Origin: Torpedo marmorata
Taxonomy: Eukaryota
Assembly (NCBI GenBank): GCA_977017645.1
Contig: OZ360235.1
Location: 37,138,001-37,202,000 of the forward strand
Reading direction: 5' to 3'
Length of the DNA stretch: 64,000 nt
Positions 6,402 to 63,007 of this stretch are shown in pieces. The notes beneath the pieces were generated by a model. That model ran no database searches and was not told the DNA's origin. It worked only from the letters and a program-made list of their open reading frames with translations. The stretch's first letter is position 1. Each line of letters starts with the position of its first letter. The translations under genes were made by a program, and so were the position numbers.

Positions 6402-6605
6402 ACTCTCTCTCTCTCTCTCTTCCCTTTTCACCAGCCTTTTAATATAGGCCCCTGCCTGCTTTTTACTCATACCTTGAGGATGGGCTTAGGCCTGAAACGT
6501 CGGTAATACATCTTTACCTCCTATGGTCACTGCAAGACCTGCTGAGTTCCTCCAGCATTTCTGTGTTTTACTACAATCACAGCATCTGCAGACTTTTGTG
6601 TTTCA
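6402..6605 (+). mobile_element. Short Penelope-like pLTR copy (internally deleted form) with hammerhead-like core
   Basis: (CT)n then CATACCTTGAGGATGGGCTTAGGCCTGAAACGTCGGT...CTGCTGAGTTCCTCCAGCA; same layout as 62800-63005. Confidence 0.8.
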
Positions 6606-7919
6606 CACCCCTGTTTCAACATTGTTGCCTGACTCAGAAAACCAAGGCCTATTCATATTGAATTCATATATGAATTTAGGGTAACGCAAAGTAAATTTTC
6701 TACCTGGCTCCCCAGCATATATTCAACTAGTTTTTAAAACAGAACAACCCCAGTTCTCTGTTCTCTACACATAACTGATGCCATTCCACTAAATCTATAA
6801 AGCTGGCATGGTGAATTCATATAAAAGCTTATCAAAGCAAATCACTCCTGACCTCTGAATCATCATTCCAGGATGGTGTTATAGGCGCAATAATTTTTAA
6901 ATGACTGGTTCAAATAGATGAAGTAATGAGAAATGTGTAACCTTCAGTGTAAATGATAACAAACAGCGGGGCCGTGTCCTCTACATATTTTGGTACACAT
7001 GTATCAAAATATACTACTAGACATAATTGCTAAATTTTAATAAAGCATTAATATGAAAACAGTATTTTTGAATGGCAAGTGAAACCCAGGTCAATATTTC
7101 ACAATAAAGCCTTGCTCTCAGAGCGGCATATTCCAGTCCTTCGTTTGATGTCATTCATGTTGAAACTCCTACAACAGCTACTATACATACTGAGTGAAAG
7201 TCTATTCCCAGGACACCATTGGTCTCCTAGTTAACACCCATGGACTTCCCAGGCATCATTTCACATGACAGCTGAATCAATCATCCAGGAGCACGTCAAT
7301 TTTTCCACCATTACCATTTAGGTCACAGTTGTTTTGAATTCGGTGTTCTGGGTCATGAACTGTTCACGAGGTTTTGAAAACATCTGAAAATGGAATTCTA
7401 CATAACTTGTAGGTTTAACCTTGCAATCCACAATAAATTCTCTTAACAATTTATTTGCACATAAACCTGCTTTAGAACATCAAAGCTACCTATGGATCCA
7501 GAAAATACAAGATACTTGAAGCAGTTCAGCACAGATATATTTTTTGTGTAGGTCACTATAACTCAACTTATTTCCAAGGAGCTGCCAATGATTCATAATT
7601 AGGAAATTTTAAATAACTGCAACTTAATTTTACTTATTCCATTTATTTACTAGTACTGTATTATATTTAGCTCACAATTGACAAGATAATTAAGACCTCT
7701 GCATATTAAATGGACATTACCTGTGTAAAAATTGTGTTTGAAACTCTTGTATATTTGTATGTGAACAACACTGTCCAGAGTACCTAACTTGTTAAAATTA
7801 TTGTATTTAATTCAGGATTTTCTGGAATCTCCTTCCACTAACTTTAAGACAGCATATTTCTGATCACAACGGCTGTGCTTCACCATAAATCTCTATCATC
7901 TGACTTAGAAAACAATTTC

Positions 7920-10974: not shown

Positions 10975-11222
10975 GGGGCGGAACAGTTAGCACAGCGGTA
11001 AGTGCAACGATGTTACAGCGCCAGCGATCAGGACCGGAGTTAGAATCCCACGCTGTCTGTAAGGAGTTTGTACGTTCTCCCCGTGTCTGCGTGGGTTTTC
11101 TCCGGGTGCTCTGGTTTCCTCCCACCCTTCAAAATGTACCAGGGGTTGTAGGTCAATTGGGTGTAATTGGGCGGCATGGGCCTGTTAGTGTGCTGCATGT
11201 CTAAATTTTACATTTTAAAATT
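10975..11222 (+). mobile_element. tRNA-derived V-domain SINE (HE1-like)
   Basis: tRNA-like head with A/B boxes, V domain GTTCTCCCCGTGTCTGCGTGGGTTTTCTCCGGGTGCTCTGGTTTCCTCCCAC, AT-rich tail; repeated at 23017, 30993 and 59405. Confidence 0.85.
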
Positions 11223-11573: not shown

Positions 11574-11828
11574 TGTAACTTATGCTTAAATCCCTGTGGT
11601 AAACCACTGTGTATAGGTTGTGGCTGGGTGAGATGTCTGGACATGCCCTCTGCTGACTGTTCCTGTGGCTCCTCCCACAGACCCCCTGACTAAAGGCAAT
11701 TGTGCCACTGCTCCTCCCCCAGTCCGGGACAGATGACCAGCATGGATGTGACTCCATTCTATTGCTAGTAAAAGCCTTTCAGTTCAAGTACAACTTCTAG
11801 TCTTTTGAAGTTATTGGTGGGCTCCTCA
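11574..11828 (+). mobile_element. 5' LTR of the Ty3/Gypsy retrotransposon
   Basis: TG...CA ends, degenerate TATA (GACTAAAGG, ~11688), poly(A)-signal-like AGTAAA (~11767), immediately upstream of the gag ATG at 11852. Boundaries are inferred because no 3' LTR is present. Confidence 0.6.
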
Positions 11829-11851
11829 ATTTTATTAGCAATAATTTAAGC

Positions 11852-13620
11852 ATGGAAAATGTCTGAGACCCGACAAGCTGGACCTCGATCCGCAAACACC
11901 AGAGGCCGTCAACGCTTTCGAACTCTGGCTAGCCTGCTTCGAGTCGTTCCTGGAGGAAATCAAGGTACACGAAGACGCTTCAAAACGCAAAGTCCTCCTC
12001 TCTAGGGTCATCCCACGGGTCTACTCGATGATCCGAGACCTGCAGACCTACGAAGACGCGATGAATGCCCTCAAAATACAGTACATACGGCCAGTAAACA
12101 CCGTATATGAGCGACATCAGTTTGACGCAGCAGCAGCGGCCCATTGAGTCGAGCGCTGAGTTCGTCCGGGCCCTACAGAAACTCGTGCGGGCCTGCGATT
12201 GCCAGGAACTGACGCCCGGAGAACACGCGGAGCTCCTGGTAAGAGATGCATTCGTCACGGGGACCAGGTCGGTGTATGTGCGCCAGCGCCTGCTGGAACA
12301 AGCCGACCTCACCTTACACTTGGCGATAGAGCTGGCTGAAACGCTGGAAGCCGCTCTGCAAAACTCAGACGCTATCCAGGCGTGCGATCTCCCGCCGGCT
12401 CCGTGGATACCGCAGACCCCGCTCCCCGCCAGCGAATCGACCACAGTTGCCGCCAGTCGCGAGTCCGAGAAGTGCTACTTCTGTGGACTGGAAAAGCACC
12501 CCCGGAAACACTGCCCGGCCCGAGAGACGACCTGAGCCAGCTGCGGGAAGAAAGGTCACTTCGCCAAGGTCTGTAAGTTCAAACCGCGAGCGGGATCAAG
12601 CAGCGCCGCGTGCGAGGCGTGGGAGTCGCCATTGTTGCTGTCGCCATCTTGCCCGTCCGCTGCCACCATGTGCGAGACATGGGGGTGGCCATCTTGTTTG
12701 TTGTCATTTCCGTCGTCGCCATCTTACACACGCGCAACCAACACGTGCGAGTCTGGGGAGCGGCCATCTTGTTCATCGCCATCTTGCCGACACGACGCGG
12801 CCCACAACCCGCGGATGCCGCCATCCCAGGCTTCTCCGTTGTGGGAATGGAACACCAGGCACTCCATCGCGTTGGATGAAGACAGCGACTCAACTTTGGC
12901 ATCCGTTACCCTCGACCAAAGTCTACCCCACCAACTCGCGAGGTCTATGATGGACATTCTGGTGGAAGGACACAGGACAAGCTGCCTTTTCAACACGGAC
13001 AGCACGGAGAGCTTCATCTACCCAGACACGGTGCAGCGCTGTGGACTGACGACACAACCGGTAAGCCAGAGGGTCGTCATGGCTTCCGGGTCGCACACAC
13101 CAGACATCCGAGGGGGGGGGTTGTGCAACGATGCTAGTGGTGCAGGTCACTGAATATCGGGACTTTACACTACTGGTCATGCCTCGACTGTGTGCCCCTG
13201 TGCTACTGGGGCTCGACTTCCAGAGCCACTTTCAAAGCGTGACGATCGAGTATGACGGAACCCTCCCACCAATCACTGTCGGTAACCCTCAATTCCTCAG
13301 ACATACTAAACGTATCCTGCCACATCACACGCGCAGCCGCATCGCAGACACTACTTGCCGCCTATCCACCCTTAAGATCAATCCCCCAACGCTGTTCGCC
13401 AACCTGACCCCTGACTGTAAACCTGTGGCAACCAAAAGCAGGAGATACAGCACGGAGAACAGGGCCTTCATTAAGTTGGAGGTGCAGGAATGGTCAGGGA
13501 AGGGATCATTGAGGCGAGCACAAGTCCCTGGAGGGCCCAGGTGGTTGTCGTTAAGAACGGGGAGTAAAATAGGATGGTGGTAGACTATAGCCAGACCGTC
13601 AATAGGTTCACGCAGCTCGA
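11852..13620 (+). pseudogene. Ty3/Gypsy (Mag-like) gag-pro-RT, frameshifted and 3'-truncated within RT
   Basis: Gag (LRPDKLDLDPQ..., RDAFVTG...RQRLLE), tandem CCHC knuckles (CYFCGLEKHPRKHC, *ASCGKKGHFAKVC), protease site decayed to LFNTDS plus LLGLDF, RT start SPWRAQVVVV...MVVDYSQTVNRFT ending abruptly near 13620. Confidence 0.9.
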
Positions 13621-15978: not shown

Positions 15979-16610
15979 AACTTATTTACTGCATCCGGTG
16001 CTCCCTTTGTGGCTTTCTCTACATCGGAGAGACCGGTCGTAGATTGGGAGATCGCTTTGCTGAGCACCTCCTCTCCGTCCGCATCAACAGTGACCTCCCA
16101 GTAGCCAGCCATTTCAATTCCGAGTCACACTCCCACACTCACATGTCTGTTCATGGCCTTATGTACTATCCCACCCAGACTACCCGCAAATTGGAGGAAC
16201 AACATCTCATTTTCCGTCTCGGCACTCTCCAGCCAGATGGCATTAACATTGACTTTTCTGCTTTCCACTAAACCTGCTTGTCTTTTCCTTCCCCTCCCCC
16301 CTCACCTGTCCTTCCTGTTTTTTTCCACCCACCCAGCCATCCCTCCTCCCCCTCTTTGCTGCTGTCCCCTCCCTCCTTTCTCCACCTATCATCTCCTGCC
16401 TTTGCCACCCCCCCCCCTTCCCCCCTCACTCTTTTGTTCAGACGCCTGCCGGCATTTTCTCATACTTTGATGAAGGGCTCAAGCCCGAAACATCGGTTAT
16501 GTATTTCTACCTTTGCTACATAAAAGACACTGTTTGACCTGCTGAGTTTCTCCAGCATTTGTGTTTTTTACTTCAACCACGGTGTCTACAGATTTTCGTG
16601 TTTTACTTTA
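15979..16610 (+). mobile_element. Penelope-like element 3' part: GIY-YIG endonuclease C-terminus, pyrimidine-rich UTR and pLTR
   Basis: Open frame NLIYCIRCSLCGFLYIGETGRRLGDRFAEHL...PVASHFN...EEQHLIFRLGTLQPDGIN to the stop at 16271; TTGATGAAGGGCTCAAGCCCGAAAC at ~16467-16491. Confidence 0.92.
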
Positions 16611-23016: not shown

Positions 23017-23292
23017 GGCGGCACGGTTAGCGTAGCGGTTAGCGCAATGCTGTTACAGTGCCAGCGATCGGGACTGGGGTTTGAATCCCGTGCTGTCTGT
23101 AAGGAGTTTGTATGTTCTCCCCGTGTCTGCGTGGGTTTCCACTGGGGGCTCCGGTTTCCTCCCACTGTTCAAAACGTACCAGGGTTGTAAGTTAATTGGG
23201 TGTAATTGGGCGGCATGGGCTCGTGGGCCAAAATGGACTGTTACCGTGCTGCATGTTTAAATTTAATTTACATTTTAAATTTAAATTTAAAT
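23017..23292 (+). mobile_element. tRNA-derived V-domain SINE (HE1-like)
   Basis: GGCGGCACGGTTAGCGTAGCGGTTAGC head, GGTTTGAATCC B box, V domain, (TTTAAA)n tail. Confidence 0.9.
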
Positions 23293-30900: not shown

Positions 30901-30992
30901 TCTTATTCTGCTTCTTCCTGAACTTCCACAGAGCTTGCCTTGAGTGACACGAGTCATAAAAATTATATGAACCTAGAAATGATATAAACCTA

Positions 30993-31248
30993 GTGGCACA
31001 GTTAGTGTAGTGGTTAGCACAACACTATTATAGCAGCAGCAACTGGGTTTGAATCCGGCGCTGTCTGTAAGGAGTTTGTACGCTCTCCCCGTGTCCGCCT
31101 GGGTTTCCTCCGGGTGCTCTGGTTTTCTGCCACATTTCCAAGACGTGCAGGGTTTGTAGGTTAATTGGTCACATGCGTGAATTTGGGCAGTGCGGCTCGT
31201 GGGCCAGCAGGGCCTGTTACCATCTCTAAATTTATAAAAAAATTAAAT
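30993..31248 (+). mobile_element. tRNA-derived V-domain SINE (HE1-like)
   Basis: Same head, V domain and tail as the 23017 copy. Confidence 0.85.
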
Positions 31249-34223: not shown

Positions 34224-34407
34224 GGAGTAAAACATGAAAGTCTGCAGACACCGTGGTTAAAGTAAAAACATAATGCTGGAGAAACTCAGCTGGTCAAACA
34301 AACCTTGATGAAGGGCTCAAGCCTGAAACGTTGGTTATGTATCTTTATCTTTGCTCTATAAAGTACACTGTTTGACCTGCTGAGTTTCTCCAGCATTGTG
34401 TCTTTAC
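34224..34407 (+). mobile_element. Minimal Penelope-like insertion: inverted tail plus direct pLTR with hammerhead-like core
   Basis: 34227-34300 is the reverse complement of the pLTR 3' end; 34302-34407 is the direct copy; flanked by a 12-bp direct repeat TTTACATGTATA (34212-34223 and 34403-34414). Confidence 0.88.
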
Positions 34408-53149: not shown

Positions 53150-56104
53150 CTAGTCCCACCTATCTGCACCCTGCCCATAACCCTCCACTTCCTTCTCATC
53201 CATATACTTGTCCAACTTTTTCTTAAATAATAAAATTGACTCTGCCGCCACTACTTCTCCCGGAAGCTCATTCCACACCGCTACCACTCTCTGAGTAAAG
53301 AAGTTCCCCCTCATGTTACCTCTAAACCTTTGCCCCTTAACTCTTAGCTCATGTCCTCTTGTTTCAATCTCACCTATTCTTAATGGAAATAGTCTATCCA
53401 CATCCACTCTGTCTATCCCCTTCATAATTTTAAACACCTCTATCAAATCCCCTCTCAACCTTCTACGCTCCAAAGAATAAAGACCTAATCTGCTCAATCT
53501 CTCCTTGTACTCTAGATTCTTAAACCCAGGTAACATTCTGGTAAACCTTCTCTGCACTCTCTCCACCTTGTTGATATCCTTCCTATAATTTGGCGACCAG
53601 AACTGCACACAGAACTCTAAATTAGGCCGCACCAAAGCCTTATATAATCTCAACATCACTTCCCAACTCCTATATTCTATGCAATGATTGATAAAGGCCA
53701 GCATACTAAAAGCCTTCTTCACCACCCTATTCACATGAGTTTCCACCTTCAGGGAACGATGCACCGTTATTCCTAAATCTTTCTGCTCTTCTGTATTCTT
53801 CAATGCTCTCCCATTTACTACATATGTCCTGTTCTGATTCTTCCTACCAAAATGAAGCACCTCACACTTATCAGCATTAAACTCCATCTGCCATTTTTCA
53901 GCCCACTTTTCTAAGCAGCCCAAATCCCTCTGCAATCCTTGAAAACCTTCTTCATTATCCACTATTCCACCTATCTTAGTATCATCTGCATATTTACTAA
54001 TCCAGTTTACCACCCCATCATCTAGATCATTGATATATATAACAAACAACAACGGGCCCAATACAGATCCCTGAGGCACACCGCTGGTCACCTGCCTCCA
54101 ACCTGACAGACAATTATCCACTACCATTCTCTGGCCTCTCCCTTCCAGCCAATGTTCAATCCATTTGACTATCTCAGAATTTATACCTAAAGACTGCACC
54201 TTCCTAACTAACCTTCCATGCGGAACCTTATCGAAGGCCTTACTGAAGTCCATATAGACAACATCCACCGCGCTACCCTCATCCACATTCCTAGTCACCT
54301 CTTCAAAAAATTCAATCAGATTGGTCAAACAGGACCTTCCGCTCACAAATCCGTGTTGAGAGTTCCTGATCAGACCCTGTCTATCCAGATATTTATAAGT
54401 ACTATCTCTGAGAACTTTCTCCATTAATTTACCTACCACAGACGTCAAACTTACAGGCCGATAATTGCCAGGCTTCCTCCTTGAACCCTTTTTAAATAAC
54501 GGAACCACATGCGCAATACGCCAATCCTCCGGCACTATCCCCATCTCTAATGACATTTGGAAAATCACCGTCAGAGCCTCTGCTATTTCTTCGCTTACTT
54601 CTCTCAAGGTCCTGGGGAAGACCCCGTCGGGTCCCGGAGACTTATCCACCTTTATATGCCTCAAAAGCCCTAACACTACATCTTTCGTAATCCCTATATT
54701 CTCCATATTTACCCAATTTGCTTTTTTTATCTGGCATATCTCAATATCCTTCTCCTTGGTGAATACCGAAGAAAAGAAACTGTTCAATATCTCCCCCATT
54801 TCTCTAGGCTCCACACACAGTTTTCCGCTCTGATTCTCTAAGGGACCAATTTTGTCCCTTGCTTTCCTTTTACCATTAACGTATTTGTAAAAACCTTTTG
54901 GATTAATTTTCACCCTGCTTGCTATAGTCTCTTCATACCTTCTTTTAGCTTTCCTAATTCCTCTCTTAAGATTCTTTTTACATTCAATGTATTTTTCAAA
55001 CATCTCCTTATTTCCATGCTTCTTATACTTAATGTACACCTCCCTTTTTTTTCGAACCAAGTTTCCAATATTCCTCGAAAACCACGGCTCTCTCAAACCT
55101 TTTGCCCCTCCTTTTAACCTAACAGGAACATAAAGCTTTTGCACTCTCAAAATCTGATCTTTAAAAGACTTCCATCTCTCTACTACATCCTGCCCATAAA
55201 ACAAATTGTCCCAATGCACACCCTGTAAGTCCCTTCGCATCTCCTCAAATCTAGCTTTTCCCCAATCAAAAACCTCAACCCTTGGCCCTGACTTATCTCT
55301 TTCCATAATGACATTGAAGCTGATGGCATTATGATCACTGGACCCGAAGTGCTCGCCAACACAAACCTCCGTCACTTGACCTATCTCATTTGCCAACAGT
55401 AGATCTAACACTGCTCCTTCTCTGGTCGGTACCTCTACATACTGTTGTAAAAAACTATCCTGCACACATTTCACAAACTCCAACCCATCCAGCCCTTTCA
55501 CAGAATGTGTTTCCCAATCTATATGTGGAAAATTAAAATCTCCCACAATCACAACCCTGTGCTTATCACAAATATCCACTATCTCCCTACAGATTTGCTC
55601 CTCTAGGTCTCTGTCCCCTCCGGGTGGTCTATAATACACCCCTACAAGTGTAACTTCTCCTTTTCCACTTCTCAGTTCTACCCAAATAGCCTCCGTGGAC
55701 GAGCCCACTAATCTATCCTGCCTAAGCACCGCTGTAATATTCTCCCTGACAAGCAATGCAACACCACCTCCTCTTGCTCCTCCGACTCTATCTCACCTAA
55801 AGCAACGAAACCCAGGGATATTCAGCTGCCAATCACATCCCTCCTGCAACCATGTCTCACTGATGGCTACCACCTCATACTTCCAAGTATCAATCCACAC
55901 CTTCAGCTCATCCACCTTTTTTACAATACTCCTGGCATTCAAATATATGAATTTCAGAGATTTCCCACTTCTTAATCTCTGTTTGCCCTTATCTTTAGTA
56001 ACCTTCTCTATCACCTGCCCATCCATATTCAAACACTGACTACAAACTTTCTCTGTTCTAACCTTCTCCTTACTGCTCGGTACTATTTTGCTCCCTCCCC
56101 CCAA
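53150..56104 (-). pseudogene. CR1 ORF2 (APE endonuclease + reverse transcriptase) with a single in-frame TGA at 55795-55793
   Basis: ORFs 55793-56104 and 53150-55756 are in the same frame: LNARSI, ISETWL, GDFN, SDH, NYRPVSLTS, DFSKAFD, PQGSVLGP, YADD. True start codon uncertain. Confidence 0.95.
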
Positions 56105-56583: not shown

Positions 56584-56940
56584 TCTTGAGTCTTATCTAA
56601 CTCTCTTTTGAACATAATCAGTGAATCTGCCTCTACCACCCTCTGTGGCAGAGCATTCCACAGATTCACACTTCTCTGGGTAAAAAAATTTTTCCTCATC
56701 TCCGTCCTAAAGGGCCTTCCCTGTATTCTTAAACTATGCCCTCTAGTCCTCGTCTCTCCCATCATTGGGAACAAGTAATCCGACTTCACCCTGTCTATCC
56801 CCTTGATAATCTTGTATACCTCAATCATGTCCCCCCTCATCCTTCTAAACTCCATCGGATATAAGTCCAGTTTTTCTAACCTTTCAGCATATGTCAATCC
56901 TGCCATCCCTGGAACTAACCTTGTAAATCTGCGCTGCACA
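56584..56940 (-). mobile_element. Outer CR1, ORF2 C-terminal fragment
   Basis: QRRFTRLVPG...RRMRGDMIEVYKI...FFTQRSVNLWNALP...FKRELD. Confidence 0.92.
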
Positions 56941-57020
56941 AGGTTAGTTCCAGGGATGGCAGGATTGACATATGCTGAAAGGTTAGAAAAACTGGACTTA
57001 TATCCGATGGAGTTTAGAAG
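56842..57020. repeat. Perfect 83-bp inverted repeat with a 13-nt loop at the CR1 5' junction
   Basis: 56842-56924 is the reverse complement of 56938-57020. Confidence 0.95.
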
Positions 57021-58069
57021 TATTCAATTTTCTGATAAAATTTTATCAGATCGTTTGCTTAAACATGATGCTATTCAAAAGAATTTCTGGACCTCTACTG
57101 TGTGATATTATCAGCTGTTCAAGGGAGACAGGAACATCCCAAATTCAATGAAGTACATGATGAAGTGTATTCATATGGTCAAGGACATCTATTCCACTGA
57201 ATACACCTCAAGAAATGCAATAAAGTTATCACTATTTAGTACTCTTAACGTTGCTTTTTATTCATGTTGTCACAATTCTAGTTTTAAAATGAAATTGTGA
57301 TCATGGCCTCCAACTTACCTAATAACTACAAAATGAAAACAAAACCAAATCTAACTTAACCACAAATTGACTTTTTTAGGTTATGAAAGATACACGTTAA
57401 AACAGAAGAATCAATGGGGCTACAGTGGAAGAAAAGAAGAAGGATGAGTTTTGAATTGTCTCGAAAAGAGCCAGTGCAAATATGATGGGCTGAATGTTCC
57501 TCCTGCTGAGCTACCGTATGTATATCTATGACTTGTTATTCTAAGTTTTCTATCCCGTAGCCAGACAAATCTACTGCAGAGCTTGCCAACTCTTTCCACA
57601 GCATAGAAAACATTAATTTAAATATGGTGAAATTCTACAGATTTTACTCCTTACCTCCTGACAGCTAATCTGGTGAAATGGATCACACATCCTTTATAGA
57701 ATCTGCATAATTTTTTTGCTATTGAATTGAGGCCATGATCCAAGTGATGAAATTCTGCTCTTTTGCAGTTTTCAAACCATGTACATCACATGAAGTGCCA
57801 GGAATCAAAACCTGCTGCCAATGATGAGCTGTGAATGCTTATTTCTATTGTAGGTACCAACCAAGGTAGTGAGGGCAGGGTTTTGTGGGTCCTAATGCTG
57901 TCACATGAGGCTTTGCTCATAAAACAGATGATTGAAAAAAAGGTTCAGTAGCAACTGAGCCATCCTCCTTGGCTTTGACAGCTATGAATGTTTCTGGATG
58001 TCTCTGATATTCAGAGCATTCAAAAACTATAAAAGATCAATTTAACAATTAAAATCATTTGGCGGTTAA

Positions 58070-59404: not shown

Positions 59405-59595
59405 TAATTATTACACCCAAATGACCTACAACCCCTGTGCGTTTTTGAAGGGTGGGAGGAAACCGGTGCACCCAGAGGAAACACATGGAGACACGGGGAG
59501 AACGTAAAAACTCCTTACAGACAGCGCCGAATTCAAACCCAGGATGCTGGCGATGTAACAGTGCTGCGCTAACTACTACGCTAACCGTGCCGCCC
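59405..59595 (-). mobile_element. tRNA-derived V-domain SINE (HE1-like), tail missing
   Basis: Reverse complement of the 23017-type head and V domain. Confidence 0.85.
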
Positions 59596-62371: not shown

Positions 62372-63007
62372 TAAAAACACAGAAATGCTGGAGGAACTCA
62401 GCAGGTCTCGCAGCATCCAGAGGAGGTAAAGATATATTACCGACGTGTTGGGCCTGAGCCCTTCCTCAACGTATGAGCAAAAAGCATGCAGGGGCTTATA
62501 TTAAAAGGCTGGTGGAAAGGGAAGAATGGGAGGGGGAGGGGTACAGACCAACAGACAAAAGGTGTTAATTGAACATGATAAAAGGAGAGAGGAAAGGTGA
62601 GAATTGATTGAGGGAGGGGGGTAGTTTTTGGCTCTGTGAAAGGAGACAGAGGGAAAAGGGAAGAGAGAGAGAGAGACAGACAGAGACAGAGACAGAGCTA
62701 GAAAGGAGACATAGGGAAAGGCTGTGGCAATTAATCACTGCAAATGAAGTCACCTCAGACATCTTTCCCTATCTCTCCTTTCTAGCTCTGTGTGTGTGTG
62801 TGTCTCTCTCTCTCTCTCTCTTCCCTTTTCATCAGTCTTTTAATATAGGACTGTCTGCTTTTTGCTCATACCTTGAGGAAGGGTGCAGGCCCGAAACGTC
62901 AGTAATACATCTTACCTCCTATGGACACTGCGAGGCCTGCTGAGTTCCTCCAGCATTTCTGTATTTTTACTACAATCAGAGCGTCTCCAGACTTTCGTGT
63001 TTTACCC
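62372..63007. mobile_element. Penelope-like insertion made of two inverted arms around a 40-bp captured filler
   Basis: Minus arm 62372-62720, plus arm 62763-63005, 11-bp TSD AATTCAGATAA (62361-62371 and 63008-63018). Confidence 0.9.

Follow-up and report, generated by a model that had tools for sequence, protein, structure and literature searches.

A duplex between the LTR and the primer position suggests self-priming in a Gypsy retrotransposon lineage without a chromodomain

The window analysed here, a 64,000-nucleotide stretch of the Torpedo marmorata genome, contains the 5' part of a decayed Gypsy retrotransposon lacking a chromodomain, with no 3' LTR seen in the window. Comparison of this copy with its relatives suggested that the element's own RNA serves as the primer of reverse transcription in this lineage, in the predicted form of a capped 5' fragment of approximately 53 nt cut just after the poly(A) hexamer, and we put the probability of this reading at roughly three in four. 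The signal is real and conserved, and most likely represents self-priming by a mechanism of a known type in a changed form. The LTR ends, the duplex, its covariation, the absence of a TGG tRNA site and the formation of junctions before integration were all read from the genomic sequence itself. The initial annotation had proposed two roles for the pairing between the LTR and the sequence following it, namely tRNA-independent priming and a block of polyadenylation at the 5' end. The former gained support from the comparative analysis and from genomic fossils, whereas the latter did not turn out to be the conserved role. The features of the element are listed in Table 1.

Table 1. Positions in the window of the LTR, the duplex and related features of the element.
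Feature	Position	Strand	Basis or remark
5' LTR, 234 bp, TG...CA	11595..11828	+	Alignment with close copies and their 3' LTRs; 5-bp target duplications
TATA-like box (putative promoter element)	11688..11695	+	Other copies have GAATAAAG; one private change in the window copy
Inr-like motif CCAGTCC	11719..11725	+	Ends of short read-through tracts; tracts shift with the motif in other subfamilies
Putative transcription start	A 11721	+	Read-through end points at the Inr
Candidate self-primer, 53 nt, start site to end of pairing arm	11721..11773	+	End points of read-through junctions
Pairing arm	11760..11773	+	Strict core of 12 bp; 14 bp in the subfamily of the window copy
Poly(A) signal within arm	11767..11772	+	AGTAAA in the window copy, AATAAA in close copies
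Second helix, left side	11774..11777	+	RCC motif directly 3' of the arm
Putative cut site	11773/11774	+	Analogy with Tf1
Likely poly(A) site (R/U5 border)	11790..11792	+	Two A-tailed LTR pieces (n = 2), one ambiguous
Second helix, right side	11819..11822	+	GGY motif; shares bases with a short hairpin at the U5 terminus; G-U pairs common
Primer-binding position, complementary to arm	11830..11843	+	One base after CA
Decayed gag, protease and start of RT	11852..13620	+	Stops and frameshifts; truncated near 13620

In the window copy, 11827-11828 is CA, followed by a spacer A (11829) and by TTTTATTAGCAATA at 11830-11843, and the last of these pairs with TATTGCTAGTAAAA at 11760-11773 through 13 Watson-Crick pairs and one G-U pair; the 14-bp complementarity had thus been located correctly in the initial annotation. 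We retrieved 39 close copies, of which 37 were scored for the hexamer and the pairing (two were not parsed). In the alignment of these copies the match between the 5' and 3' LTRs ended at CA 11827-11828. The 5-bp target duplications, which were perfect in 19 of the 27 copies with a located 3' end and had one mismatch in seven and three mismatches in one, agreed with this boundary, upholding the LTR end that had been proposed. The hexamer was AATAAA in 33 of the 37 scored copies, AGTAAA being a private change of the window copy, as had been supposed for the ancestral signal, and all 14 pairs were of the Watson-Crick type in 25 of the 37. The reported lack of a tRNA primer-binding site was also confirmed, and the LTR does not end near 11814. 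A candidate tRNA site at TGGTGG near 11815 was rejected as a private change of the window copy inside the LTR, where other copies have TGATGG. In the gag-selected copies and metagenome families described below, the sequence following the LTR began with A-TTT and varied with the arm, and no TGG tRNA-type site was present; because the primer site varies with the arm, it cannot match any one tRNA. A scan of the window with ARAGORN gave no tRNA gene. At the very end of U5, a short hairpin (ATTGAT..ATCAAT) was seen at 11810-11830 of the window and in the copies L169 and L182; in one subfamily both of its strands have changed, to TGAC..GTCA. This hairpin competes with the second helix, and resembles the U5-IR stem of retroviruses.

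Two degenerate patterns for the start of gag matched 17,373 and 7,803 places in the genome of 6.2 Gb, with no match for the controls. For an unbiased sample, the first 30 places per pattern (60 copies) were chosen by gag alone, with pairing ignored. The longest complement between the 22 nt following the LTR and the LTR had a mean of 12.3 nt in the 59 scorable copies, compared to 5.3 nt for a gag window and 5.8 nt for shuffles. For the count of pairs, L116, with a deletion at the LTR end, and L190, with a deletion within the arm, were dropped from the 60 copies. In the 58 remaining copies, pairs 1-12 (696 in total) comprised 680 Watson-Crick, one G-U and 15 mismatched pairs, and pairs 13-14 held in about 60%. 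Double changes were found in at least 15 arm types. In a set of 22 diverse copies, both sides changed in eight of the 14 pairs, giving a covariation score of 0.394 versus 0.064 or less for slid controls, and the adjacent 4-bp helix showed no pair changed on both sides and had G-U in 19 cells. In one subfamily the hexamer had become ATTAAA together with a matching change in the primer site, and AATAAA and ATTAAA were the only compensated hexamer states across the subfamilies of the genome. RCC directly followed the arm in shark-type copies.

The changes were also counted on a tree built from gag only. Pair 8 changed 7 times in the arm, 8 times in the site and 9 times jointly, and pair 9 changed 9, 9 and 10 times, respectively, 9 being the highest count among the 145 LTR columns. 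These pairs occupy the two bases immediately 5' of the hexamer, and both strands changed on the same branches, transversions included. The two sets of counts were all that was used from the tree analysis, as a ratio of shared change over all fast column pairs was not discriminating, slow columns being nested inside fast ones. A further prediction came from a 3' LTR of a sister family, found by chance in a flank, which carries a different arm. The post-LTR junction predicted from this arm alone gave 2183 matches in the genome and none for the control, and the copies confirmed it. The complementarity first noted in a single copy was conserved in others, in the form of covariation across subfamilies. 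Copying of the primer into the primer site would be expected to produce change of this kind, rapid and strictly Watson-Crick, next to a helix that tolerates wobble pairs. In L113/L143, the arms of the 5' and 3' LTRs belong to different subfamilies, and the primer site fits the 3' arm and mismatches the 5' arm.

If the primer is LTR RNA starting upstream of the arm, plus-strand synthesis should sometimes copy beyond 14 nt, and the primer site would then continue as the reverse complement of the LTR. This prediction of self-priming was tested by searching for the LTR end, the spacer and then the LTR reverse complement. Three genome patterns detected 87, 51 and 11 such read-through junctions (149 in total), with none for the controls, and 148 were retrieved and mapped, one of the 51 places of group 2 being missing. 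In a long class, made up of 57 of the 87 junctions of group 1 and 42 of the 50 of group 2, the tract reached the first base of the LTR, in most cases with host DNA beyond it. Of the first 81, 77 reached the terminal CA and 12 continued into the purine tract. Some copies of the long class consisted of one LTR and an inverted U3 inside a perfect target duplication. The long class is a fold-back of plus-strand strong-stop DNA; it requires DNA fold-back only, and shows that a 3' end was free at the primer site. As separate observations, L347, L348, L377, L379 and L395 are mini-elements consisting of one LTR, the spacer A and an inverted part from U3 to the arm, and three of them (L348, L377 and L379) have two U3 ends and perfect 5-bp target duplications and are integrated fold-back strong-stop DNA. 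Tandem arrays of aberrant elements that share an LTR, as expected for insertion by homology at the primer site, occur in L361-L363 and in L425 (about +1826 to +2111, counted from the first LTR end).

The short class pointed to the start of the transcript. The short tracts of group 1 numbered 30, or 27 after removal of L356 (a tandem duplicate), L273 (not an element) and L315 (a failed alignment). Nine of the 27 ended from -1 to +2 of the A of the Inr, which lies 53 nt from the end of the arm (p of about 4e-8 relative to a uniform distribution), and 12 within -6 to +2, with eight ending earlier and seven later. The distance from the G of the TATA-like GAATAAAG to this A was 33 nt in 77 of 82 copies, and 32 or 34 nt in the other five. 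In subfamilies with the Inr at 73-74 nt, the eight short tracts ended at 23, 41, 48, 62, 67, 73, 75 and 141 nt, and with the Inr at 63 nt the only short tract ended at 60; the numbers of junctions outside group 1 are small. The seven group-1 tracts that run past +2 and one of the eight in group 2, ending at 48, were exceptions, and tracts of 21 nt, the minimum of the pattern, may be microhomology jumps rather than copies of the primer. A C-run adjoining the Inr could be a pause site; another C-run approximately 35 nt further on had no end points. Beyond the tract, most copies of the short class jump to varied internal positions. Perfect 5-bp target duplications were present in six of the eight short-tract elements with both ends visible, and the junctions were therefore formed before integration. 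In the simplest reading, the end points would mark the 5' end of the template, that is, the start site. As the short tracts end at the Inr 53 nt upstream of the arm end, the primer is likely to be a capped fragment of approximately 53 nt. Short tracts could also arise when the plus-strand end anneals to a second intact RNA and is copied to the cap, a route that maps the start site, not the primer. For any suspected self-primer, read-through junctions offer a purely genomic mapping of primer ends and start sites.

In the mechanism that we propose, transcription would start from 11721, and the arm would pair with 11830-11843 past the LTR, assisted by the second helix. The RNA would be cut at AAUAAAA^GCC (11773/11774), probably by the RNase H of the element as in Tf1. 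The resulting minus-strand strong-stop DNA would be about 56 nt long, and would be transferred via an overlap of approximately 18 nt with the 3' end, given polyadenylation near 11791. Plus-strand synthesis would then copy the primer back into the primer site, rewriting the site to match the arm, which would explain the strict Watson-Crick covariation. A 53-nt primer with an unpaired leader of 39 nt needs something that stops plus-strand copying near 12-14 nt, and nothing of this kind was found. The geometry thus raises the question of how the reverse transcriptase would cut inside the RNA at the duplex edge and then limit the copying of a long primer.

All that the short tracts establish is a start of the copied RNA at the Inr, which would also be in keeping with priming in trans. 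Here, uncut genomic RNA would be primed by short RNAs that originate from 5' or solo LTRs, are polyadenylated early and are then trimmed to the duplex edge. The hexamer appears functional, and LTRs without an adjoining primer site were common among the matches, both in favour of such a supply of RNA. The intramolecular duplex, with a predicted mean probability of 0.95, would nevertheless exclude a trans primer, and a cut directed by structure would agree with the conserved RCC..GGY helix at the junction, leaving priming in trans improbable. Compared with the three-duplex "pretzel" structure of the Tf1/sushi chromoviruses, the central duplex and one flanking helix were conserved, and a third helix downstream of the site was inconsistent in the folds shown.

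It is very unlikely that the element follows Tf1 exactly, with transcription starting at the arm and the first 12-14 nt of the RNA serving as the primer. The strict core of 12 bp is near the 11 nt of Tf1 (given in the available part of PMC7175516), and in several subfamilies the arm is preceded by CCATTC, which resembles an Inr. However, other subfamilies have no Inr there, no TATA-like box lies approximately 30 nt upstream of the arm, and the short tracts pass the arm and halt at the upstream Inr.

More distant relatives were found by a metagenome scan, which detected 79 loci with 43-76% identity to the query. The 34 loci with a match at or near the start of gag were examined, four of which were too short upstream. 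An 11-19 bp duplex was present at the primer position in 22 of the 30 scorable loci, and a clear duplex was absent in eight. The 22 loci represent 12 families. In six of them a 3' LTR in the same contig verified the position of the LTR end, and in all 12 families, as in the shark-type subfamilies, the duplex begins one base after CA, the place that a primer has to occupy. The arm ends with TAAA followed by RCC in 11 of the 12 families, and its hexamer is AATAAA in three, ATTAAA in two, GTTAAA in five, TTTAAA in one and unrelated in one. A canonical poly(A) signal is thus missing from the arm in seven families, in three of which it sits in the loop. Because of these seven families, the duplex was considered to track the primer position and not the poly(A) signal, and priming, not masking, is therefore the conserved role. 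In the 3' LTRs of metagenome relatives (L214, L215 and L233), a pyrimidine tract ending in CAG, resembling a 3' splice site, was seen upstream of the arm; some relatives may have an intron in the leader.

Masking of the 5' poly(A) signal was nevertheless plausible in the lineage of the window. When 56 copies were folded from the putative start, the hexamer was predicted to be paired with a probability of 0.95 in the presence of the post-LTR sequence and 0.14 in its absence, and the duplex, one strand of which comes from beyond the LTR, is restricted to the 5' end. Where the hexamer sits in the arm, as in the window copy, masking by the duplex is likely as a secondary use. As to the signal itself, two genomic pieces terminate in a run of A 17-19 nt downstream of the hexamer, cleanly and within a 14-bp duplication in one case and ambiguously in the other. 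A second genome pattern, for A-tailed pieces extending further into U5, gave no match, with two for the control. The depth over U5 was lower in one of three contig-only runs than in the other two; that run was only guessed to be RNA, and as ends are invisible in contigs the difference was set aside. At positions 1480-1870 of L439 (minus strand), a LINE-like 3' end runs into 61 nt of LTR sequence and then an A tail, all inside a target duplication of 14 bp; this represents a 3' transduction or a template switch ending at the LTR poly(A) site.

The folding result, along with the restriction of compensated hexamers in the genome to AATAAA and ATTAAA, would also be expected if the duplex mainly hid the 5' poly(A) signal while some other molecule served as the primer. 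We regard this as highly doubtful, as seven of the 12 metagenome families retain the duplex with no canonical signal in the arm, G-U pairs should be accepted in a helix of purely structural function as they are in the neighbouring one, and an alternative primer would itself need to covary with the arm. A fortuitous match between AT-rich sequences, or a wrongly placed LTR end that conceals a tRNA site, can be dismissed, for although seven of the 14 pairs form an invariant A/T-rich block and the fold of the window taken singly reached only z = -2.3, the fixed LTR end and the double changes refute both.

The domain order was taken from the uninterrupted natural frame of a related copy rather than from the window copy. 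This frame has the order PR-RT-RH-IN and a Gag with two CCHC knuckles, of which the window contains a broken version. The features of Ty3/Gypsy elements were present (TG..CA LTRs, target duplication, purine tract and the order gag-PR-RT-RH-IN), and the best match among solved structures was the RT of Ty3 (E 7e-45). Among the homologues listed, the nearest named proteins were those of rays and sharks (76-89% identity), a sea anemone (64%) and a whipworm (57%). No Chromo match was detected in the full natural frame of the related copy, and PF00385 was absent from all of the 120 homologues listed; the element is therefore not a member of Tf1/sushi. The lineage resembles Mag in its PR-RT-RH-IN order and lack of a chromodomain, as well as in two CCHC arrays (PMC2577118, in part) and a short LTR with a clear AATAAA (PMC3601003, in part). 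Unlike mosquito Mag elements, to which the available text of PMC3286476 assigns tRNA-Leu, -Ser or -Arg sites, it has no tRNA site. Support for the label "Mag-like" comes only from the Gag architecture.

According to the available portions of the literature, the position following the 5' LTR also pairs with LTR RNA in Tf1 and Tf2 of Schizosaccharomyces pombe, in Tj1 and in Tf1/sushi elements, and all of these likewise have no tRNA site and form a further helix from LTR sequence downstream of the primer (PMC10085805, PMC7175516, PMC11042837). In the same portions, the primer of Tf1 is the RNA's initial 11 bases, cut by RNase H, and Tf1/sushi elements are described as chromoviruses (PMC7175516, PMC10085805); the Tf1 primer is copied into the primer site (PMC11042837). 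The lineage studied here shares with Tf1/sushi a primer site complementary to its own LTR in place of a tRNA site, but differs in having no chromodomain and a Gag with two CCHC knuckles. Its primer does not appear to be confined to the 5' terminus, as the end points of the read-through tracts lie at the conserved Inr, 53-75 nt away from the end of the arm, and unlike in Tf1 the arm would lie approximately 39 nt inside the transcript and end on the poly(A) hexamer. Self-priming has also been predicted from complementarity between the LTR and the primer site in the plant Tcn1 and TAR (Houba, Osr-1) lineages (PMC6317226). Unlike the present lineage, these are plant chromoviral Gypsy or Copia elements, and the accessible part of that source describes neither a link to the poly(A) signal nor a long primer. 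Skipper of dictyostelids has neither a tRNA site nor LTR complementarity, as far as the available part of PMC5006619 goes.

As in HIV-1, a poly(A) signal inside R needs silencing at the 5' end. The hairpin of HIV-1 lies within R and is present at both ends, whereas here the partner strand is outside the LTR and the duplex is confined to the 5' end. For HIV-1, suppression of the 5' poly(A) signal has been explained by an occlusion model. A hairpin at this signal and U1-based suppression are described in the available part of PMC5961354.

A search of the literature, as far as listings and partial texts go, found no report of self-priming in an animal Gypsy element without a chromodomain; within the texts covered, self-priming in animals was placed only in the Tf1/sushi chromoviruses. 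We consider the chances evenly balanced that we are dealing with a widespread animal Gypsy lineage lacking a chromodomain, with over 25,000 gag starts in this vertebrate genome alone, in which self-priming evolved separately from Tf1/sushi. Its geometry would be new, with a long capped primer taken from the middle of R and cut exactly at the hexamer, a duplex confined to the 5' end that would both silence premature polyadenylation and define the primer end, and mis-copied insertions that record the 5' end of the primer almost to the single base. If true, this would be a second abundant self-priming lineage, and tRNA independence would have arisen more than once in Gypsy elements. Such elements would presumably lie outside control by tRNA fragments, and their priming would account for a possible failure to detect them with finders that depend on a tRNA site.

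Other repeats were also observed in the window. An open frame of 880 codons on the minus strand at 53150-55792, within a skewed stretch, is probably a LINE. A SINE-like repeat with a tRNA-like head occurs at 10977-11144, 23017-23184, 30985-31152 and 59410-59594, and a second dispersed repeat at about 4-127, 6446-6606, 16445-16606, 34274-34407 and 62851-63005. An inverted repeat of 86 bp is located at 56839-57023, its arms being 99% complementary and separated by 13 nt.
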